The notes beneath the pieces are model-generated. The model was not told the origin of the DNA, did not search any database, and worked only from the letters and a program-made list of their open reading frames with translations. Below are positions 9,107 through 33,164 of a DNA stretch of 33,792 nucleotides, piece by piece (positions within the stretch are counted from its first letter, which is position 1; each line of letters opens with the position of its first letter). Position numbers and translations under genes: made by a program. The DNA is from Macrostomum lignano (Eukaryota). The stretch spans positions 1-33,792 of the forward strand of contig NIVC01000574.1 of the NCBI GenBank assembly GCA_002269645.1. The letters run 5' to 3'.

Positions 9107-9517
9107 TTAAAATTTCTTTAATCCTTTTCCACCTTTAATAGTATTTAACATTTTATTAAAATCCTGAATATCTTTATTACTTATTGGTGCGCTTTTCGTG
9201 GGGGTTTCTGTTGGTTGTGCGGCTTGGGTTGCTTCCTGTGCTAATTTCAAATCTTTTATTGCTTTTATCTGTGAGAGGGTATCGTTAAATTCTCTCAATT
9301 TCTTTAGTTCTTCTGCTGATCTAGCTGCATCAATTCCGCCCTTTACGGCGTTGGTTATAGAGCCTGCTGCAGAGCCAGCTTGCCCTATAAGCCCCATATT
9401 GTCTTTAACGAAATTTGCTGCTGTTCCAACCAAATCAAAAAGCCCCTCACCTCGGTATTCAATTGGATCTCCTACCTGATACTCATTTATATTTTGCACA
9501 TGTGTAACGTGTGTCAT
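9107..9517 (-). CDS. Adenovirus pVI-like membrane-active core protein candidate (136 aa)
   Basis: Short leader, then RGEG-LFDLVGTAANFVKDN amphipathic segment, and a C-terminal GGKG-LKKF basic peptide. The pVI analogy is inference. A conserved paralogue in element B supports coding. Confidence 0.65.
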   Translation of the reverse strand: MTHVTHVQNINEYQVGDPIEYRGEGLFDLVGTAANFVKDNMGLIGQAGSAAGSITNAVKGGIDAARSAEELKKLREFNDTLSQIKAIKDLKLAQEATQAAQPTETPTKSAPISNKDIQDFNKMLNTIKGGKGLKKF

Positions 9518-9585
9518 TTTTTGTTCTATTTTTAGTAACAGAAAAAGACCCTACGCGCCTGCGGCGCGGCCTGGGGTTATAAAGT

Positions 9586-9889
9586 AGTAGTAGGTAAAAG
9601 TACGCTTCTAGATCAGACCTATTGAAAATGATGATTTGAAGGGCTAGTGGGGGGACACGAGGGGATTGTTATTGATGATTTGGGAGTGTTATTGGTGATT
9701 TGGGAGAGTTAGTGGTGATTTGTGTTGTTTTGTGGTGTTGGGGGTGTTGGTGGGAGGTAGTGTGTTTAAGGGGGGTAAAGGGTGTTTAGATGTGTTTTTT
9801 TAGTACCCCCTCGTGTCCCCCCACTAGCCCTTCAAATCAGCATGTTAAATAGGGGTTCTGGGGCTAGAAGCGTACTTTTACCTACTACT
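9586..9889. repeat. Terminal fold-back of element A: internal inverted copy (9586-9664) of the terminal ~85 bp
   Basis: AGTAGTAGGTAAAAGTACGCTTCTAG...GATTTGAAGGGCTAGTGGGGGGACACGAGGGGG at 9586 pairs with CCCCCTCGTGTCCCCCCACTAGCCCTTCAAATC...CTAGAAGCGTACTTTTACCTACTACT ending at 9889. Confidence 0.93.
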
Positions 9890-9908
9890 GATGCTTTTAA
9901 ACAAAGAT

Positions 9909-10303
9909 ATGGAGTTGACACAACTAATAATATCGAATTAACAAATTAGGCGCGGCAATTAAAAATAAAACCATTCAGATGTGTTATGCGCGATGAAATG
10001 AAAGATTTACCAAAATATGGATCATTCATTGTAAATATTGAAACGACAAAAGAAAATGGTGTTCATTGGTCAGCGGTTTATTCAAAACCAAAAGTTGTTT
10101 ACTTTTTTATTCTTATGCATTACCTCCATTGTAGGAAATAAAAGACAAATTTAATCATACAAAAAATCGATTATGTGGAGATTACCACGAACAGTTTCAA
10201 ACCTTTGATAAAAAGTTATTGCGGACAGGCGGCATTGTATTTTTTGTATCGAATTAATAATTCTAACCAATCAGAGTCATTTTAAAAATATTTTAGACTA
10301 TAA
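9909..10303 (+). pseudogene. Adenain-like (Polinton) cysteine protease pseudogene
   Basis: Manual translation across a TAG and frameshifts: TTNNIELTN*ARQLKIKPFRCVMRDEM...FIVNIETTKENGVHWSAVY...YF/SYALPP...QFQTFDKK/YCGQAALYFL. The catalytic HW and Q...CG motifs are recognisable. Not in the ORF track; start position approximate. Confidence 0.8.
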
Positions 10304-10317
10304 AATAGGCTCTAAAA

Positions 10318-11335
10318 ATGTTATTTTCTGGAGCACCTTCATGGAATGGAACAACAAGCAGCGGTGGTGGTGGGGAATCAAGTGGGATTAGTGTTACATT
10401 TGAAAACAATAGGTATATAAATGACGATGAAGGTTATAAAAAAGTGAAATAGATACTAAATTAAATTTAAAACGAAATATAGCAGATTCGTATACCAAAA
10501 CAGAAATAGGTAATTCATTAAACTTAAAACGGAATACAGCAGATTCTTATACCAAAACTGAAATAGATAATTCATTAAACTTAAAAAGAAATATACTTGA
10601 TTCTTATAGTCAAGCTGAGTTGATTCTGCAGATAATGAAAAAAGAGATATAACGGATTCTTTTTCTAGAACTGAAATAGATAATTCATTAAATTTAAAAC
10701 GGAATATATCAGATTCATATACCAAAACCGAAGTTGATAATTCATAAAATTTAAAACGAAATATATATGATTCATATACCAAAACCGAAGTTGATAATTT
10801 GGTAAACACATCTAGTGGTTATACAAAAACAGAGACCGACAATTTATTAGATATGAAACAAGACAGATTTAATTTGACAGAAACTGGTCAAATTCCAACC
10901 ATGGCTGATTGGAGTGGAAATGGTTTTGCAATTACAGCCAGCTCAGAATTTAACACAACTGATTTTGCAAGCTGGAAAGCGTTTGATGCAGATTCAACAA
11001 CTGATTGGGCTACTGCTGGAGTTCAAACCGATTATTGGATAAAAGTTCAATGCCCATCTGCAATACTTTGTAATAAAATTGATTTGACTGGGAGAGCATC
11101 GCCATCTACCGAGCACCCCGCGTCATGGAGATTTAAAGGGAGAAATGACAATACAAGTTGGGACATATTAATTCTAACAGAAAATACTGCATTATCATCG
11201 ACAACCCGAACATTTAATGTCACACAAAATTTTGGTAAAGAATATTTATATTTCAGATTATTTTGTCTTACTTCAACATCCGGTTCAACAAATCCGGGTC
11301 TATCCGCAATGCAGATTTATCGTCAGACTTCATGA
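10318..11335 (+). pseudogene. Element B fibre-like gene: LNLKRN..DSYTKTE repeats (frameshifted) plus a discoidin-like head
   Basis: Starts TAAAAATG (MLFSGAPSWNGTTSSGGGG...). Same 57-bp repeat family as A with stops and indels. The intact 3' part 10799-11335 has TASSEF...WKAFD...DWAT...WIKVQ...YFRLF discoidin motifs. Confidence 0.8.
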
Positions 11336-11350
11336 TCAGCGGTTCTTAAA

Positions 11351-11920
11351 ATGAATTTAGGAATAATTGATCAAGTAATTGATATGGGTGGAAATGCTAT
11401 TACCAATCTACCGAATCCAACCAACGATAGCGAAGCCGTTACTAAGTTTCAATTTGACAGATTGAAAAATGTTAATGGGCACATTCCAACTTTATTTGAT
11501 AATAACGACCCCACATTTCTTGTAACAACATCAACAAATTTTACAGGATATGAAGGATTTCGCGCTTTTAATCAGAATTTTGCTTCGGATAATGAGTGGG
11601 CAACAAATGGTGAAACAGCAAACAGGAAATGAAGAATTCAACTTCCGGACGCAGTAAGAATTTGGAGATTTTCTTTAGTTGGTAGATTGAGTGGTGAAAA
11701 CCCAAACGATATTATCTTTCAAGGAAGTAATGACGGATCCACATGGACTGATTTACTATCAACTACTGCTGGTTTAGTTGGAACAGCAATTAAATATTTT
11801 AATTTACCGTATACAACAATTGCTTATAGTTTTTATAGATTGTTTTGCACAACCGCTACTGGTGGTTCGGGCAATCCAGGAGTTTCATATTTGCAGATTT
11901 ATCCATATTTTGAAGTATAA
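11351..11920 (+). pseudogene. Short stalk plus discoidin-like protein interrupted by one in-frame TGA (11630-11632)
   Basis: ORFs 11351-11632 and 11687-11920 share a frame: ...WATNGETANRK*RIQLPDAVRIWRFSLVG...FQGSNDGSTWTDL...YSFYRLF. N-terminal DMGGNAITNLPNPTNDSEAVTK stalk motif. Confidence 0.8.
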
Positions 11921-12136: not shown

Positions 12137-12397
12137 ATGAGTCATAGTTCAATTTCTCAATTGGAGCCTTTTAGGAGTTATGTTGCATGTGAAAATAGCG
12201 CAAAAAGAAGATCAAGATATGCCTTTTGGTATGAAGATTACAAACGAGCGTGTGAAAGAATATTAGAGTTTCAGAAAAAATATAAAACATCTGCCGAGCA
12301 GGATTTAATGATCGAGCGATATTTCACCCTATTTTATATTGGAATTGATTTTTCCATCCCAACAAAATTTTTATTAGAAATTACTAAGCTTAAATGA
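12137..12397 (+). CDS. Hypothetical protein of element B (86 aa), 3' end near the internal deletion junction
   Basis: ORF packed after the previous gene; its end abuts the truncated pX-like paralogue. Confidence 0.45.
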   Translation: MSHSSISQLEPFRSYVACENSAKRRSRYAFWYEDYKRACERILEFQKKYKTSAEQDLMIERYFTLFYIGIDFSIPTKFLLEITKLK

Positions 12398-12583
12398 GAT
12401 TGGTCTTCCTTTTTGTGCATATTTTCCAGCAAGTTTAAACGTGTCAATATCATAATCCAATTTTTTACCCAATCTATCGATTCGTTTTAAAATTGTGTGG
12501 CTATGTTTGTTATCATCTAAATTTAAACTGTCTACTATTTCAGATAAGAAAAGTGTGCGATTTTCATCATTATCTGAGTCCAT
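12390..12583 (-). pseudogene. Truncated paralogue of the pX-like core gene (N-terminal ~65 aa only)
   Basis: MDSDNDENRTLFLSEIVDSLNLDDNKHSHTILKRIDRLGKKLDYDIDTFKLAGKYAQKGRPISFK aligns to the first 65 aa of 8104-9096; homology stops near 12390. Confidence 0.9.
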
Positions 12584-12593
12584 TTTTATATTA

Positions 12594-13903
12594 CTAAAAC
12601 TTCTTTAATCCTTTTCCACCTTTAATTGTGGTTAACATTGAAATACTGGCTGTTTGCTTCCCGGATTAGGCCCTTGCGGATTACCTTAAGACTCGAGCCT
12701 CTTCAGTGGGAAGTTCTCTCAACTCTTAGTAGCGTAGGTAGTGCTGCCACCAGTTCCTTCAGGTCTCGGCCTTCGATGAGGTGAGCTTCCCGTCGGAACG
12801 AAATAAACAAGTCAACGAACTCAGCACAGCGTGCAGATTTGCAGATTAATGAACAAGGCGTCCTGATCAGCAGATCCCCGCCGGGCTCAGGGGTGGCTGG
12901 GAAGGCAGTGTTAGCCTCCCTTAGGCTTGGGCTTTAGTGGGGTCTCAGTCAGACCAGTACAAACGGATTCAGTACGCAAAGGGCACTTAGTTAGACACTG
13001 ACGCACACGGGATCTTAGTGAATTCTCCGCAGATAAGAAGCCTCCTTGACGGAAACAAGGGGAGAGGGGTCCTATTTATAGACGGGAAACACCCACGCAC
13101 AAGACCTCGTGACTCGTTCTATTTTTAGAACTGACGTCACTTGAGGTCTCCGGCCAGAGTACACGCGGCTGTGACTCAGTTGCTATTTTTAGCAACATGA
13201 GTCACTCCTCTCCTTAGAGAAGTGAGGGGTCCGAAAGCACGTGATTCTCCCGGTAAACATGTTTACTGCACTTTAGGACTCGAAGAACACAGAGTCTGTC
13301 ATGTGACTTGCTCACATGACAGAGGAAAACGGGACGGGAACGAAACAGAGACAGCCCACAGCAGAGAAGCTGAGGGCTGAGAACAGACGCAGAAGGGCAG
13401 AACAGGCCAAGGGCAGCAACAGACGGGCCAAGGGGGGCGGGAAGCTGACCAGCGGCAGACAGCAACCCAGGGCGAGGGCGAGGGAGACTGCTGACAAAGT
13501 GGGACGCCTAACATCAACTAGCGGATCACTACAACATTTTATTAAAATCTTGGATATCTTTATTGCTCAATGGGTTACTTTTAGTAGGTGTTTTAGTAGC
13601 TTGTGCGGCTTGAGCAGCTTCTTGTGCTAGCTTTAAATATTTTATTGCTTTTATTTGCGAGAGGGTGTCGTTAAATTCTCTCAATTTCTTGAGCTCTTCT
13701 GCTGCCTTAGCTGCTTCTATTCCACCCTTGACTGCGTTGGTTACAGAGCCTGCTGCTGAGCCTGCTTGTGCTATTAGTGGCATATTATCTTTTATTGTAT
13801 TTGCTGCGGCGCCTATTATGTCAAAAAGACACTCACCTCGGTATTCTACTGGGTCTCCTATTTGCAATTCATTCAGATTGTATACTTGCGTATGGTGTGC
13901 CAT
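12594..13903 (-). pseudogene. pVI-like paralogue split by a solo LTR: complement join(12594-12638,13538-13903)
   Basis: 13903-13538 matches 9517-9151 (RGECLFDIIGAAAN...KDIQDFNKM). The C-terminus LTTIKGGKGLKKF-TAG resumes at 12638-12594. Confidence 0.92.
12639..13533. mobile_element. Solo LTR (895 bp), probably Ty3/Gypsy-type
   Basis: TG...CA ends, exact 4-bp target duplication ACAT (12635-12638 and 13534-13537), higher GC than the flanks, TATAAATAGG on the minus strand at 13071-13080. Removing it restores the gene sequence seen in element A. Confidence 0.88.
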
Positions 13904-14257
13904 TTTTGTCTATTTTTAGTAACAGAAAAATTAATGCGTGAATACTCAAAAGAATAGGCTAGATTCCATAGGAGCTTAGTGTGGCTAGAATTGGCGCTTT
14001 TCTTTATAATTATAAAGATTGGCGCTAGTTGAGTTGCCGCATTTATCTATGTAAAAGGAACAATGAGGAGTAAGAGAGTAAATAATTTTGTTAAGTGTTA
14101 GTTTAGTTTGACTCAGTTGGCGCTTTTCTTTATAAATGTTATACATTATAAAACTGTTGATAGTGGCTAAAATGGTGTGGAATTATAAACTGTTATTGAA
14201 TAATGGCTAAAACAAGCGATTCAGTTATTATCAGTTATTTAAAACAAATAAAATCAA

Positions 14258-14989
14258 TCATTTCCGATGGCTAATAGAAACTTTCCGGCTGATCCCCACT
14301 GCTATTTTGTCATCGCGTCCTTCGAATTGTGGCGTCAGAGGTGTCTTCAACATCGAGCAAAAGTCTTCGTCTGAGTTTGCAGCAGACTCACTGGTGGTTT
14401 TATACTGCAAAATTGTGTTATATGCGTATGGCGCGAAACGAAGAGCCGGATAGTCTTCACAAAGTTTGTGGAAAGTTTTCATTCGTGAAACATAGTTGTC
14501 GCCGCACTTAAGACGACTTTGAATTTCCTGATTGCTCATAGTCTCGGATAGAAACGCGATGGTGTCGGCTTTTTGGCGCCAATTACTCCCTTAATCTCAT
14601 CGACCTTTTCTTCAATGATGCATAGCTCCGCGTATAAGCTAGTAGCAGTGTCGTCAGATGTGATTTCAGCCTTGATCAGCTTCTCCAGCTCTCGATAGTC
14701 TGTCTTGATATGAATCGCCTCAGTGTGATGCTTAGATAGCCACGCTTTCAAGTTGACAATGAATCTCGCACTTTGTTCGGCTTTGTTTGATTTCTTCTTG
14801 TTGCTACTAGATTCGTCATCCTCAATCGTCTTATCGGTGGCTTGATGAACGAGGCTTACCAAAGTATCATTGAAGGAACCGCGTTTTTCTTTTGGAAGGC
14901 GATTCAAAAATAAAGCAATTGATGTATTGCTTTTCTTTGTTAGACTCTTCAAATTGCTCATAAATGCTTTCAATTTCCTTGTCGTTCAT
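14258..14989 (-). pseudogene. Frameshifted accessory gene in element B (unknown function)
   Basis: TAAAATG at 14989 starts MNDKEIESIYEQFEES..., shifting into the 14536-14973 frame, then via an overlapping ATGA into 14258-14539 (YVSRMKTFHKLCEDYPALRF, a helical motif I recall from transposon/virus-derived invertebrate ORFs). Confidence 0.5.
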
Positions 14990-15311
14990 TTTACTAGCTG
15001 CTTAATGATAAGATATTGAGAGAACTAATAGAGCTGAAAAACAATATAAGCGCATTCAAAGAACCTCACAACCTTGCTCAGAAAAATTTGCGAAGATAAA
15101 ATATGTGAGCTAATTCATGCTCTGGGGTGCTCATATATATATATATTTTCATGATAATAGAAAGAATTCATGCATTCCATTCTAGTCACGTGGCGAGAGC
15201 AAAACGTGAGAAAAAATTTTCGAAAATCAAAAAAAAAATTTAGCCTCACGTTTTGGTTTGAATAAAATGCAAGGCTCAGAATATCGTGCTGTGGGTGAAT
15301 GGGCACTTGAA

Positions 15312-15580
15312 GACCCCGAATTCCTGTGTTAGTCATAAACTGTGTCTGCGTCCCTTCGGGTGATAAAATGAAGTTTACTATAGTCGACCCTATTGTTGTG
15401 ATGTGAGCTTGTTTGTGAGTAGCGCGAGTAGACCCCGAAATTCCTGTGTTAGTCATCAGACTGTGTCTGCGACCCTTCGGGCGATAGAATAAAGTTTGCT
15501 ATAGCCGTCTATATTGTTGCAATGCAAACTTGTTTGTGTGTAGCGTGAATAGAACCCCGAATTCCTGTGTTAGTCATCAG
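15312..15580 (+). repeat. ~120-bp direct repeat, 2 full copies and 1 partial, with CCCTTCGGG hairpins
   Basis: GACCCCGAA(A)TTCCTGTGTTAGTCAT at 15312, 15431 and ~15552. Confidence 0.85.
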
Positions 15581-15680
15581 ATAAAAGCCTTTGTGCCCCA
15601 AGCGCCTGCGGCGCGGTCGGGGGTTAGAAAGAGTTGTGGGTGTTGGAAGTGTTGGAAGAGTTAGTAAGTGTTGGTTGTGT

Positions 15681-15920
15681 AGTAGTAGGTAAAAGTACGC
15701 GTATAGGACTGTGCACCTATTAAACATACGATTTGAAGGTCTTGTGGGGGGTACTAGGGGGTTAGATTCAGATTTTGTTTTTGGTTTTTTTCGATTGTTG
15801 GGGAGATTAGATGTGTTTATTTGTGTTTTTTTAAGTTTCCCCTAGTACCCCCCACTAGACCTTCAAATCGTATGTTTAATAGGTGCTCTCAGGGATAGAC
15901 TCGTACTTTTACCTACTACT
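15681..15920. repeat. Terminal fold-back of element B: internal inverted copy (15681-15761) of the terminal ~82 bp
   Basis: AGTAGTAGGTAAAAGTACG...GCACCTATTAAACATACGATTTGAAGGTCTTGTGGGGGGTACTAGGGG pairs with CCCCTAGTACCCCCCACTAGACCTTCAAATCGTATGTTTAATAGGTGC...CGTACTTTTACCTACTACT. Confidence 0.93.
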
Positions 15921-16405
15921 CCCCAGTCTGGGTCATATAGAATCCCCAGTCTGGGTCATCCAGAATCCCTAGTCTGGGTCATACAGAATCCCCAGTCTGG
16001 GTCATACAGAATCTACAGGATCTGGGTCATACAGAATCCCCAGTCTGGGTCATGCAGAATCCCCTGTCTGGGTTATACAGAATCCCCAGTCTGTGTCATA
16101 CAGAATCCCCAGTCTGGGTCATACAGAATCCCCAGTCTGGGTCATACAGATTCCCCTGTTCGTGTCATACAGAATCCCCAGTCTGGGTCATACAGAATCT
16201 ACAGTCTGGGTCATACAGAATCCCCAGTCTGTGTCATACAGAATCCCCAGTCTGGGTCATACAGAATCCCCAGTCTGGGTCATACAGATTCCCCTGTTCG
16301 TGTCATACAGAATCCCCAGTCTGGGTCATACAGAATCTACAGTCTGGGTCATACAGAATCCTCAGTCTGAGTCATACAGAATCCACAGTCTGGGTCATAC
16401 AGAAT
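15921..16405 (+). repeat. 23-bp minisatellite (CAGAATCCCCAGTCTGGGTCATA)n
   Basis: About 21 direct tandem copies with variants, starting immediately after element B's terminus. Confidence 0.95.
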
Positions 16406-17040: not shown

Positions 17041-18137
17041 TGGCGGCTTCAACATAAGGCGTCCCATTTTTATAAATTTTATTTCCTAGTCCTTGGACTG
17101 ACTGACCGAGTATCTGTATCTGAGACTGCACTGCACAGACCCGCGAGGCCGATTCATTCGTGGGCAATTCTAATGGACCCACGCGAAAGATTATATATTG
17201 CAGCCAAGAGGATAGTTTTGAATGTTTTAGATTTCCTTTGTATGTAAATTCATATCATGCAATTGGAATCGCATTGTTTCGGTTGTACTGAATCCTACCT
17301 TTTCGCGCCGGAGCTTAGAAATACAAAAGCTCCGTTCCTGCCGACATGGTCAGCAGGGCTGGCCATAGACCATAGCTAGAATCTTAATGCGCCCCTGTGC
17401 AAAGCCTTTCTAGCCGAGAATGGAGCATTTCACGAGCTATACTTGGCTTGGACCACAGATTCTATAAACCGAATCTGTGGCTTGGACAAATCTAGGGTCG
17501 AAAAAAGCAGTTCAAAGTGCATTTCACTTAATTCTCTCTGAATAGATTATGCAGTGTGTACACTCGATATCTAACAATAGACACTACAGTTCGCTTTAAA
17601 ATCTGCAAACAGGCCTTTTTGAAAGAGAAAGCACTGCACCTCCTTAATACGAGTAGTGCATCATTTTATTGAAAAGTAAATCAGCTACAACCATGGATAT
17701 TTTTGCATACATCGGATTCTGAGACTGATGATGTCATCACAGAGAATGCTGAAACCGACTCGCTGCATTCCATTGCAGATAAGTAGGACATTTTTCACCC
17801 ATTCTTCGTATGATCAGCGCTGCTGACCATGCTTGGCAGGAACGCCTAATGTGCAGCTCATAACTTTTCTTTTACCATAGACTCCAAAAAATTACTAGCA
17901 GTAAAGGCTGTTGGCCCATGGTCAGCAGCTGACCATCCGGCAGCTTAAAGTTAAATATTTATTTAACTGCGTTTCATGTGTATATCTCAAGTTTAATGAA
18001 GCTGGCAGTATAACTGAGCAGTACAGTAGTTACAGGTTATCAGAACAAAAATAGCTAAAATTAAGTCTACTACAACGTAAGTTAAATGAGTTACTTGCGT
18101 GAATTAAGGTTCTGGAATCAAGCAGAAATCTTGAGCT

Positions 18138-25298: not shown

Positions 25299-26354
25299 TC
25301 AGCTCGCCCTGGCCATGTTAGACTTGCCGTGGCGCCACACCTGGGTGTGGTACTGGATGGCGTAGCTGGAGTTGTAGCGCCTGCGGCAGGTCTCCAGCTC
25401 ATCGGCCGTCATGCCGTTAAGGGTCCGGCAGGCTGGGTCACTGCCGAACCAGCTAAACGGGTTGAAGAACTCCGGCCTGTAGAGACAGACGGAGCCACTG
25501 TAGCTTGCCCAGTTCCTCTTCAGCAGCCGCATCAGCATCAGCGGCCCGGTGCGGTCCTCCTCTAGCGGGTAGCTGCCCGTCAGCAGACTCCACCGGCGCT
25601 GGCTGGCGATACGCTGAACCTCCTGGATTGCGTCCAGCCAGATCTGCTGGCCCGGCCGGCTGTACATCAGCGAGTTCTGCACAAGGCCGGACGGCATTCG
25701 CCAAGCTGTCCAGCCGGACCCGACGGACATCGAGCCCAGGACCACGCTGCAGTTGGCCAGCAGGTGGTGGAACGGGTGCAGGCACTCCGAGTCCAGGTCG
25801 GCGTACAGGCCGCCCATGCTGTACAGGTACAGGTACCGGACAGAGTCCACTCGCTCAATCTTTGTCGGCAGCGAGCGCCAAGTCGGATAGAAGTCGGGAA
25901 ATTTCCGACGCACAAAGTCGGCATTGTCGGCGTCCGTCCACAGCCGGTGCTGCCAGTCCGGGAAGCAGCGGCGCCAGCTGGCCGACCAGACAGAGAACCG
26001 GTTTGGAAGGCTGGCCGACTTCCACGACTGGTGCACGAAGCTCGGAGGGATGCCTCGGCCGCTGGCGCTGGCGCCGGTCGAGTGCAGGGGCAACATCGGT
26101 ATGGCCGGGAAGAACTCCAGCTCCTTGGCCAGCCGGTGCGCCAGATGCGAGGCGATCATCAGCGTCAGGAGCAGAGCTGGGAGGCCGAGTGCCAGCCGGA
26201 GCTTCGGGCTGCGAATTCGCATCCGGTTTAGGTGGCGCCGGGCGGGGCCGGGGCAGCGCTTCATCAGCTGCCGCCACACCAACGAGTCGTGTCGAGCGTG
26301 CCCAGCTGCAGCTGAATAAATTGGCGATCGAAAGCTCAGATTGATGGTGGACAT
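25299..26354 (-). CDS. Glycosyltransferase family 32 (DXD sugar-binding, OCH1/SUR1-like), type II membrane protein, intronless CDS
   Basis: Transmembrane anchor LALGLPALLLTLMIA; IP..VHQSWK; W...FPDWQHRLWTD; RVDSVRYLYLYSMGGLYADLD; TGP motif; GC-rich host-like codon use. Confidence 0.9.
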   Translation of the reverse strand: MSTINLSFRSPIYSAAAGHARHDSLVWRQLMKRCPGPARRHLNRMRIRSPKLRLALGLPALLLTLMIASHLAHRLAKELEFFPAIPMLPLHSTGASASGRGIPPSFVHQSWKSASLPNRFSVWSASWRRCFPDWQHRLWTDADNADFVRRKFPDFYPTWRSLPTKIERVDSVRYLYLYSMGGLYADLDSECLHPFHHLLANCSVVLGSMSVGSGWTAWRMPSGLVQNSLMYSRPGQQIWLDAIQEVQRIASQRRWSLLTGSYPLEEDRTGPLMLMRLLKRNWASYSGSVCLYRPEFFNPFSWFGSDPACRTLNGMTADELETCRRRYNSSYAIQYHTQVWRHGKSNMARAS

Positions 26355-26627
26355 GAGAGGCTGTGTAGCAATTAGGTGATTAATATATACTTATTATGTA
26401 CTCGTATTAGTCATTTTTAGAACTCCAAATGCCTCATATATATTTGTTGCAGTAGCAGCCTGTGAATAATGTCTATGGTCAAACTGTTTGATTTTATCGA
26501 TTTAGTGCAAATGTACATTTTTCACACCCGTCCAGATGGTCTGTGGCGAATCTTCTTTTGCTTCTGTGCTTAACTTATCGCCCGTGAGGGCTAACCGTTA
26601 GGATACAGAATGAGTACCGAAAGTATC

Positions 26628-32725: not shown

Positions 32726-32821
32726 AGTAACACCCATTTCACAGATTCAACATTTTATTTGATGCTTTGTTTGGGGCTAAGTTACTCCTTTCAACAATTT
32801 AAACATTTATTTCGGCCACAG

Positions 32822-33149
32822 CACTAAAAATTCGGTACTGATATGCTTCAAGGATTGCTCGGCGGCCACAGACGTGCTGGTGAATCTGCACATTGTGTCA
32901 TTCAGCACCCTGAGCGTGCAGAACATGGACTTCACCGTGAACATCTACTTGCGCATGATCTGGGAGGATGCCCGTTTGGCCTATTCAGCCTCCAATCCTA
33001 ACGCTTCCGTCAGTCTGCACTCGATGAAAGACAAAATCTGGATGCCGGATATCTTCTTTCGCAACGCAAAGCAGGTGGAAAATCATGCTGATCCGGTGCC
33101 CAACATCCTGGTCAAGCTGCGGCCGACGGGGCGCATCTACTTCTCACAG
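32822..33149 (+). CDS. Exon 2 of the Cys-loop channel, anion-channel type (GluCl/GlyR-like)
   Basis: [61 protein letters not shown]. The acceptor ...TTTCGGCCACAG|32822 is phase-compatible with exon 1; donor CAG|GTGAAC at 33149. The 5' boundary is less certain. Confidence 0.85.
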
Positions 33150-33164
33150 GTGAACTCAGCCTGA

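Follow-up and report, generated by a model that had tools for sequence, protein, structure and literature searches.

An inverted inner copy of the terminus at one end of two nested Polinton elements in Macrostomum lignano, and its possible short-range fold-back

According to the accessible text of the cited works, Polinton/Maverick elements (adintoviruses) encode a protein-primed B-family polymerase (pPolB) and an adenain-like protease and carry a 5'-(AGT)2//(ACT)2-3' end motif, with (AGT)2 or (AG)3 reported (PMC8097293), while nesting and pPolB-less derivatives are also described (bioRxiv 10.64898/2026.07.28.741278 and 10.1101/2025.02.07.637071). For protein-primed replicons, the panhandle is the standard model of origin regeneration and homology restoration, and the available portion of the same account states that not even adenovirus and PRD1 have so far provided direct evidence for it (PMC11886824). 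Two further systems have self-complementary sequence at or near their ends, as far as the accessible parts of their descriptions go: Halocafeteria virophages and PLVs carry 52-nt terminal palindromes, which are proposed to fold and prime as hairpins (bioRxiv 10.64898/2026.07.28.741278), and DIRS1-like retrotransposons contain, near one end, an internal complementary region (ICR) that matches the termini in complement and by which the terminal sequence is constrained (PMC3266345). Palindromes inside casposon TIRs, as outlined in the accessible text, are among the nearest published layouts. The excision, copying and end maintenance of Polintons currently rest on models. To our knowledge, their single-stranded replication intermediate has been proposed but not observed.

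We analysed a stretch of 33,792 nucleotides of Macrostomum lignano contig NIVC01000574.1 (the window), which contains two nested elements of this kind. Element A starts before the window, ends at position 9889, has an intact pPolB gene and is inserted inside the putative protease gene of element B; B is a decayed relative of A that has no pPolB but retains the terminal module, its end at 15920 lying in a minisatellite with a 23-bp unit. The pPolB ORF of element A (4106–7846, minus strand), which measures 1246 aa from stop to stop and includes an Endonuclease VII domain, matched 4621 of 8000 candidates at E ≤ 1e-20 with a best identity of 52%; PF03175 was found on some of these relatives, and on the ORF itself Pfam returned Endonuclease_7 and no other domain. 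The ends at 9889 and 15920, one for each element in the window, read ACTACT, the (AGT)2-type motif. Together with the pPolB relatives, this end bears out the assignment to a Polinton-type element with an (AGT)n terminus that an earlier note had made from the letters of the stretch. The terminal module of A is adjoined by two ORFs on the minus strand (8104–9117 and 9107–9550), whose homologues in B lie at 12389–12604 (a fragment) and 13529–13909. Amino-acid identity of these last two ORFs between A and B is 78–79%, with 79% (317/400) for 9107–9550 versus 13529–13909.

The remaining genes fit the nested arrangement. The broken, putatively adenain-like protease gene of B (9890–10280, plus strand) is interrupted by A near its 5' end, a placement that follows from loose ends at 9890 and 9899 in the assembled reads of three runs (X1, X11, X13), which show other sequence ahead of this gene at other sites. 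Its piece at 9950–10135 scored 0.95–0.96 to Preplasmiviricota clusters in the ESM Atlas, with Peptidase_C5 on 13% of the members, and had no Pfam match and no meaningful match in a PDB search. On the plus strand, A carries an ORF with 19-aa repeats (2–1930, extending beyond the window), which we take to be fibre-like, and B has its broken homologue with an F5/8-type domain (10320–11920); the 57-bp (19-aa) tandem repeats occupy 2–418 in A and 10391–10855 in B within these homologous ORFs, and the C-terminal parts gave no mutual tblastn match. Retroviral-like integrase, packaging ATPase and major capsid protein were absent from the 14 ORFs scanned, the rest of A and B being upstream of the window; Pfam matches to SseC, URO-D, NMT and YlmH fell below the cut-off and were rejected. 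In addition, B contains an 895-bp insert at 12639–13533, bounded by TG...CA and duplicating 4 bp (ACAT), which resembles a solo LTR. Elsewhere in the window, we observed 23-bp inverted repeats 441 bp apart (17345–17367 and 17809–17831), possibly a small non-autonomous DNA transposon, a GC-rich intronless glycosyltransferase ORF of 363 aa amid satellite arrays (25299–26390; Gly_transf_sug, E 1.3e-11), and a Cys-loop channel exon (32781–33164), in keeping with a probable animal host.

Each of the two elements carries, shortly before its end, an inverted copy of that end. Specifically, a 79-bp inner copy in A (9586–9664, plus strand, with one extra AGT before it at 9583–9585) faces an outer arm at 9807–9889 (minus strand), which reaches the true terminus at 9889, has a different gene directly after it and coincides with the loose ends 9890/9899 in the read contigs. 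In B, an inner copy of 80 bp (15681–15760, plus strand) faces an outer arm at 15839–15920 (minus strand), whose terminus at 15920 abuts the 23-bp host minisatellite. The arms are 89% identical in either element, over 83 columns in A and 82 in B, so the inverted copies of the terminal ~80 bp that had been suggested at 9586 and 15681 are confirmed. The 19-mer AGTAGTAGGTAAAAGTACG has exactly four exact occurrences in the window (9586 on the plus strand, 9871–9889 on the minus strand, 15681 on the plus strand and 15902–15920 on the minus strand), and matches to it appeared in 0 of 100 shuffles. The inner arm is shorter than the outer one by 4 bp in A and 2 bp in B. The A pair is identical over nt 1–26, mismatched at ~nt 27–36 and at three further positions at ~nt 44–50, and then shares a 33-bp identical block, and the B pair is identical over nt 1–19, mismatched at ~nt 20–32 and then identical in blocks of 30 and 17 bp; these positions and the shorter inner copy agree with the earlier description, which had put the main differences at about nt 20–38. 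Both inner copies begin at nt 1 and end at the same G-run.

Between A and B, a terminal block of ~108 bp inward from 9889 and 15920 is conserved at 83%, which is longer than the inner copy, and sequence common to the two elements continues leftward of the units but stops at their right edge. The outer arms are therefore the termini and the inner arms partial copies. Both ends in the window adjoin the homologous ORFs 9107–9550 and 13529–13909 and are thus the same end of the family, the opposite ends falling outside the window; conservation of the copy in two diverged elements stands, while the plural "termini" of the earlier wording reduces to one end seen in both. We also observed GT directly before both inner copies (15679–15680 in B, within the AGT at 9583–9585 in A). 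This GT is missing from the integrated outer ends and might, speculatively, template bases lost in integrase processing.

The arms are separated by spacers of unusual composition: 142 bp in A (9665–9806), with 57 G and 1 C on the plus strand and with 9782–9806 inside the terminal block conserved with B, and 78 bp in B (15761–15838), with 19 G and 2 C. Both loops have a predicted fold of 0.0 kcal/mol on either strand. Folded as single-stranded DNA, unit A reaches a predicted -89.5 kcal/mol (z -16.5) and unit B -80.8 kcal/mol (z -17.7), with equally stable shuffles in 0 of 100 cases for each, in line with the proposal that the end is able to fold back locally. On one and the same strand, the inner arm can thus base-pair with the final ~80 nt, the loop between them being unstructured.

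By analogy with known protein-primed systems, we propose that the element maintains the inner arm as a subterminal copy, complementary to the replication origin at this one end of the family, through which the displaced strand would re-form a duplex origin locally and the end would be kept repaired; we give this reading a probability of roughly 45%. The replication steps in it are modelled on the panhandle proposed for adenovirus and PRD1. The pPolB would copy the linear element by protein-primed strand displacement from the far end, and the displaced plus strand, whose 3' end is this terminus, could fold onto the inner copy 140–220 nt away, yielding a duplex origin of ~80 bp without pairing to the far end of the element. 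Priming on the fold-back duplex would displace the inner arm, repair or template use within the fold-back would transfer changes between the arms, and fold-back repair could restore a frayed or integrase-processed end. The 2–4-bp shortening of the linker (nt 20–36) may, speculatively, prevent the inner copy from being used in duplex DNA, whether as an origin or by the integrase as an end. Folding of the minus strand would occupy its 5' end, and the model therefore calls for a corresponding structure at the opposite end of the element.

A different history of the unit, which we regard as unlikely, is that an internally deleted derivative of ~300 bp, made of a left and a right end, was inserted by the hairpin that precedes the inner copy and supplied, with its far end, the new terminus of the family; the inner arm would then be a relic left end kept similar by passive gene conversion. 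The unit indeed resembles a MITE with imperfect TIRs, the linker difference between inner and outer arms could be an old left/right asymmetry, and nesting is common in such elements, as far as the accessible text of one survey goes (bioRxiv 10.64898/2026.07.28.741278). The slot by the hairpin also takes insertions, with a 1.7-kb sequence between the last ORF and the hairpin of B (13930–15595) that has no counterpart in A, and a third sequence at 9548 in contigs of runs X2 and X13. However, flanking duplication is absent at either unit, the left flank differing from the right in both, and neither unit is followed by traces of an earlier end. A functionless relic should moreover decay or be deleted over ~20% divergence, whereas the inner arm persists with the same limits in A, B and further variants. 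The slot is a possible cargo site; in B it contains ORFs at 14258–14985, of which 14258–14590 has weak HTH-like ESM Atlas matches (recognition 2261), and three ~120-bp repeats with small hairpins at 15311–15581.

All four arms were aligned. Of the 88 columns, 56 are invariant (nt 1–19, CCTATT, GATTTGAAGG and the G-run), 10 are element-specific, 1 is position-specific, 0 are crossed and 21 fall in none of these classes. Each inner arm's sequence tracks its own terminus, that is, the arms change together. The binomial p value for element-specific versus position-specific columns is 0.012, which is overstated given that 6 of the 10 element-specific columns are adjacent, leaving ~5 events versus 1. 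Among the changes common to both arms of one element are an indel and letters that lie beyond the invariant blocks. The concerted change gives indirect support to pairing of the arms and would, on our proposal, arise because repair takes place inside the fold-back duplex; inverted repeats in general can be homogenised by conversion without function. Fold-back is also supported in that the arms are concerted although the ORFs of A and B are only 79% identical, and in that B kept the terminal module after the loss of pPolB.

The 56 invariant columns would suit a second binding platform in duplex DNA, with sites for integrase, terminal protein/polymerase or packaging ATPase, or a promoter for the ORFs reading away, where both arms co-evolve with the binding protein and folding is incidental. 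Subterminal repeated binding sites are common in DNA transposons, examples being the IR/DR of Sleeping Beauty and the internal repeats of piggyBac. We nevertheless hold this explanation to be improbable, as the common indel and the letters outside the invariant blocks suggest copying, not parallel selection, and the virtually C-free unstructured loop is left unexplained.

An identical GC hairpin upstream of the inner copy, likewise pointed out earlier, was verified in both elements (9548–9577 in A with its core at 9555–9569, and 15596–15622 in B with its core at 15602–15616); the core GCGCCTGCGGCGC occurs in the window only at 9555 and 15602. From the core start, the inner copy lies 31 bp away in A versus 79 bp in B, and the spacing is not conserved. 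In B, a C-free G/T tract of 55 bp (15626–15680, 0 C) leads from the hairpin to the inner copy, and its counterpart in A is 8 bp. In A it falls in the deepest of 30 read-contig bins in runs X2 and X13, so that among the non-coding signals of this Polinton family the hairpin may be the best conserved; it could be a promoter, a terminator, or a packaging or replication signal. Rfam returned three generic hairpin matches, all far below the gathering threshold.

The uneven position of the copy, 8 bp after the hairpin in A and 55 bp in B, speaks for the idea that it is a recurrent by-product of template switching in protein-primed replication, generated independently in A and B and so mimicking concerted evolution. 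Adenovirus mutants with embedded ITRs form a template-switch precedent, which our literature search did not recover. That the nearest match of each inner arm is its own terminus and that the spacers of A and B, with the last 30 nt removed, show no significant likeness (the score was reached by 176 of 500 shuffles) would also suit such an origin. We find it hard to credit, since the copies of A and B agree in both limits and in the place where the linker is shortened, and similar units recur in further variants seen in read contigs.

Those variants come from assembled sequencing reads, in which 16 of the 18 runs listed, from 6 studies, contain part of 7900–10380. For unit A, we examined contigs mapped on 9000–10300 at 85% likeness in four runs (X1, X2, X11 and X13; three samples, three studies), one of which may be the source of the window sequence. 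This view covers 24 of 238 loose ends and 32 of 2025 pieces among the matches listed, and contig depth in it is a rough measure, not copy number. An exact contig of X1 (9635–9779) joins the inner arm to the A spacer, and contigs with one difference (9750–9862; X2 and X13) join the spacer to the outer arm. Three joints at least (9603>9864, 9617>9857 and 9630>9852) mark contigs with both arms and another interior, at depths of 12–52. Loose ends at 9620 (X2, X11, X13) and 9827 (X1, X11), among the matches listed, show a further variant in an inner-type and an outer-type arm; we infer that the two belong to one variant, the short contigs being unlinked. A variant inner arm also occurs on A's own spacer, as seen from loose ends at 9646 (X2, X11) and from spacer contigs that align only from 9658 (X2, X11, X13), and the match between inner arm and terminus is therefore closer in some of these near-identical copies than in others.

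Mean depth over 9000–9571 was about 37,000 in X2 and 4,000 in X13, and the bin at 9704–9747, in the A spacer, was the lowest or second-lowest of the 30 bins in all four runs (212, 59.7, 32.5 and 32.9). Contigs at 9750–9862 were 2.2–3.8 times deeper than the spacer contig, and the outer-block bins were 3.9–5.9 times deeper than the inner-block bin, so that the inner arm may be missing or divergent in many copies. The depth step at 9750 hints weakly at a TIR of no more than ~140 bp, with the left end perhaps diverging there.

For A's spacer type, a free high-copy MITE family or an assembly artefact is largely refuted and, although the flanks of the at least three contigs with both arms are unseen and some could be free units, very improbable overall, because neither unit has a flanking duplication (TSD), the A spacer is among the shallowest bins in four of four runs, and exact or near-exact short-read contigs from three studies tile the A unit across both arm–spacer joins and show two-armed variants. 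The same lack of flanking duplication and of excess spacer depth for A in the four runs disfavours the self-contained 240–304-bp mini-replicon or integrase substrate that the earlier note had envisaged, while its suggested check for an assembly artefact came out, at the level of short-read contigs, in favour of a genuine structure.

We found no similar end outside Macrostomum lignano in the collections searched, which is weak evidence because they hold few intact animal Polinton ends. Polymerase alignment A2 yielded 29 related IMG/VR loci from 116 pattern matches; most were incomplete, and their 40 contig ends included one AGT-type end (L013) and 0 inner inverted copies. Scans with the single pPolB protein, with alignment A1 in viral_contigs and genome_contigs, and in the phage collection gave no match, nor did the terminal ORF scan. 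Neither the terminal 19-mer nor the hairpin pattern had a match in viral_contigs, and the two matches of the 19-mer in metagenome_contigs were dismissed as chance, both lying inside a bacterial ORF, presumably ftsY. Paired 9-mer patterns hit 36 IMG/VR loci, all rejected, with real arms in 0 of 36: over the 17 bases that follow, no locus had more than 9 matches (13 in one simple repeat), versus 17 in A and 14 in B. One IMG/VR pPolB element (L005) has a long TIR (1–737 and 15080–16141), the right copy of which contains ~320 extra bases between matching blocks.

Several observations speak against fold-back: the depth steps, the variable inner arm on the A spacer, the hairpin spacing of 31 versus 79 bp, the counterpart at the opposite end that minus-strand folding calls for and that was not seen, and the lack of an inner copy in L013, which alone among the related IMG/VR loci has an AGT-type end. 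We advance the broader statement more tentatively than the fold-back of the arm itself: a Polinton lineage may possess a selected, ICR-like end module, consisting of hairpin, inner origin copy, unstructured loop and terminus, that rebuilds or repairs the origin by short-range fold-back. If so, the concerted evolution of the arms would be a genomic trace of the single-stranded replication intermediate. An end of ~300 bp with its own pairing partner and co-evolving arms makes the panhandle model testable from genome copies and with a short synthetic strand. On the practical side, TIR and MITE finders would take such units for short elements in their own right and so set the Polinton boundary at the wrong place.

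The feature, seen at one end, is real, common to several subfamilies in this host and apparently undescribed in the literature searched. No description of an inner inverted terminus copy in a Polinton was found in the accessible text of PMC6431247, PMC8097293, PMC8363768, PMC8502044, PMC3014272, 10.1101/2024.01.15.575659, 10.1101/2023.08.22.554363, 10.1101/2025.02.07.637071 and the other works cited here, whose supplements, like the Repbase annotations of the host, could record one. The elements here resemble described Polintons in the pPolB (A), the AGT-type end, the nesting and the pPolB-less derivative (B), whereas the accessible descriptions give simple TIRs of 46–1447 bp and do not mention an inverted terminus copy inside one end. 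In comparison with MITEs, the units are also short, non-coding and bounded by inverted repeats, but they have no TSD, show no sign of high copy number and here always lie at an element end. The Halocafeteria virophage and PLV palindromes, as the accessible text presents them, are likewise self-complementary ends of integrated polinton-related elements with a proposed help in replication; theirs lie at the extremity (gap limit 10) and are linked to non-pPolB elements, whereas the arms here are ~80 bp, imperfect and 78–142 nt apart, and element A encodes a pPolB and has ends of the protein-priming type. The likeness to the DIRS ICR is an analogy of working only: judging from the accessible account, DIRS elements are RT/tyrosine-recombinase retroelements without TSD in which two joined ICRs serve both ends, while here there is one copy, the element has a pPolB, and neither reverse transcriptase nor tyrosine recombinase was found among the 14 ORFs scanned. 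As in the panhandles outlined for adenovirus, PRD1, bidnavirus and casposons in the available portions of PMC11886824, PMC4938981 and PMC4046053, a displaced strand would pair with itself to give a duplex origin; there, however, the two genome ends pair, whereas here the partner lies 240–304 bp from the same end.
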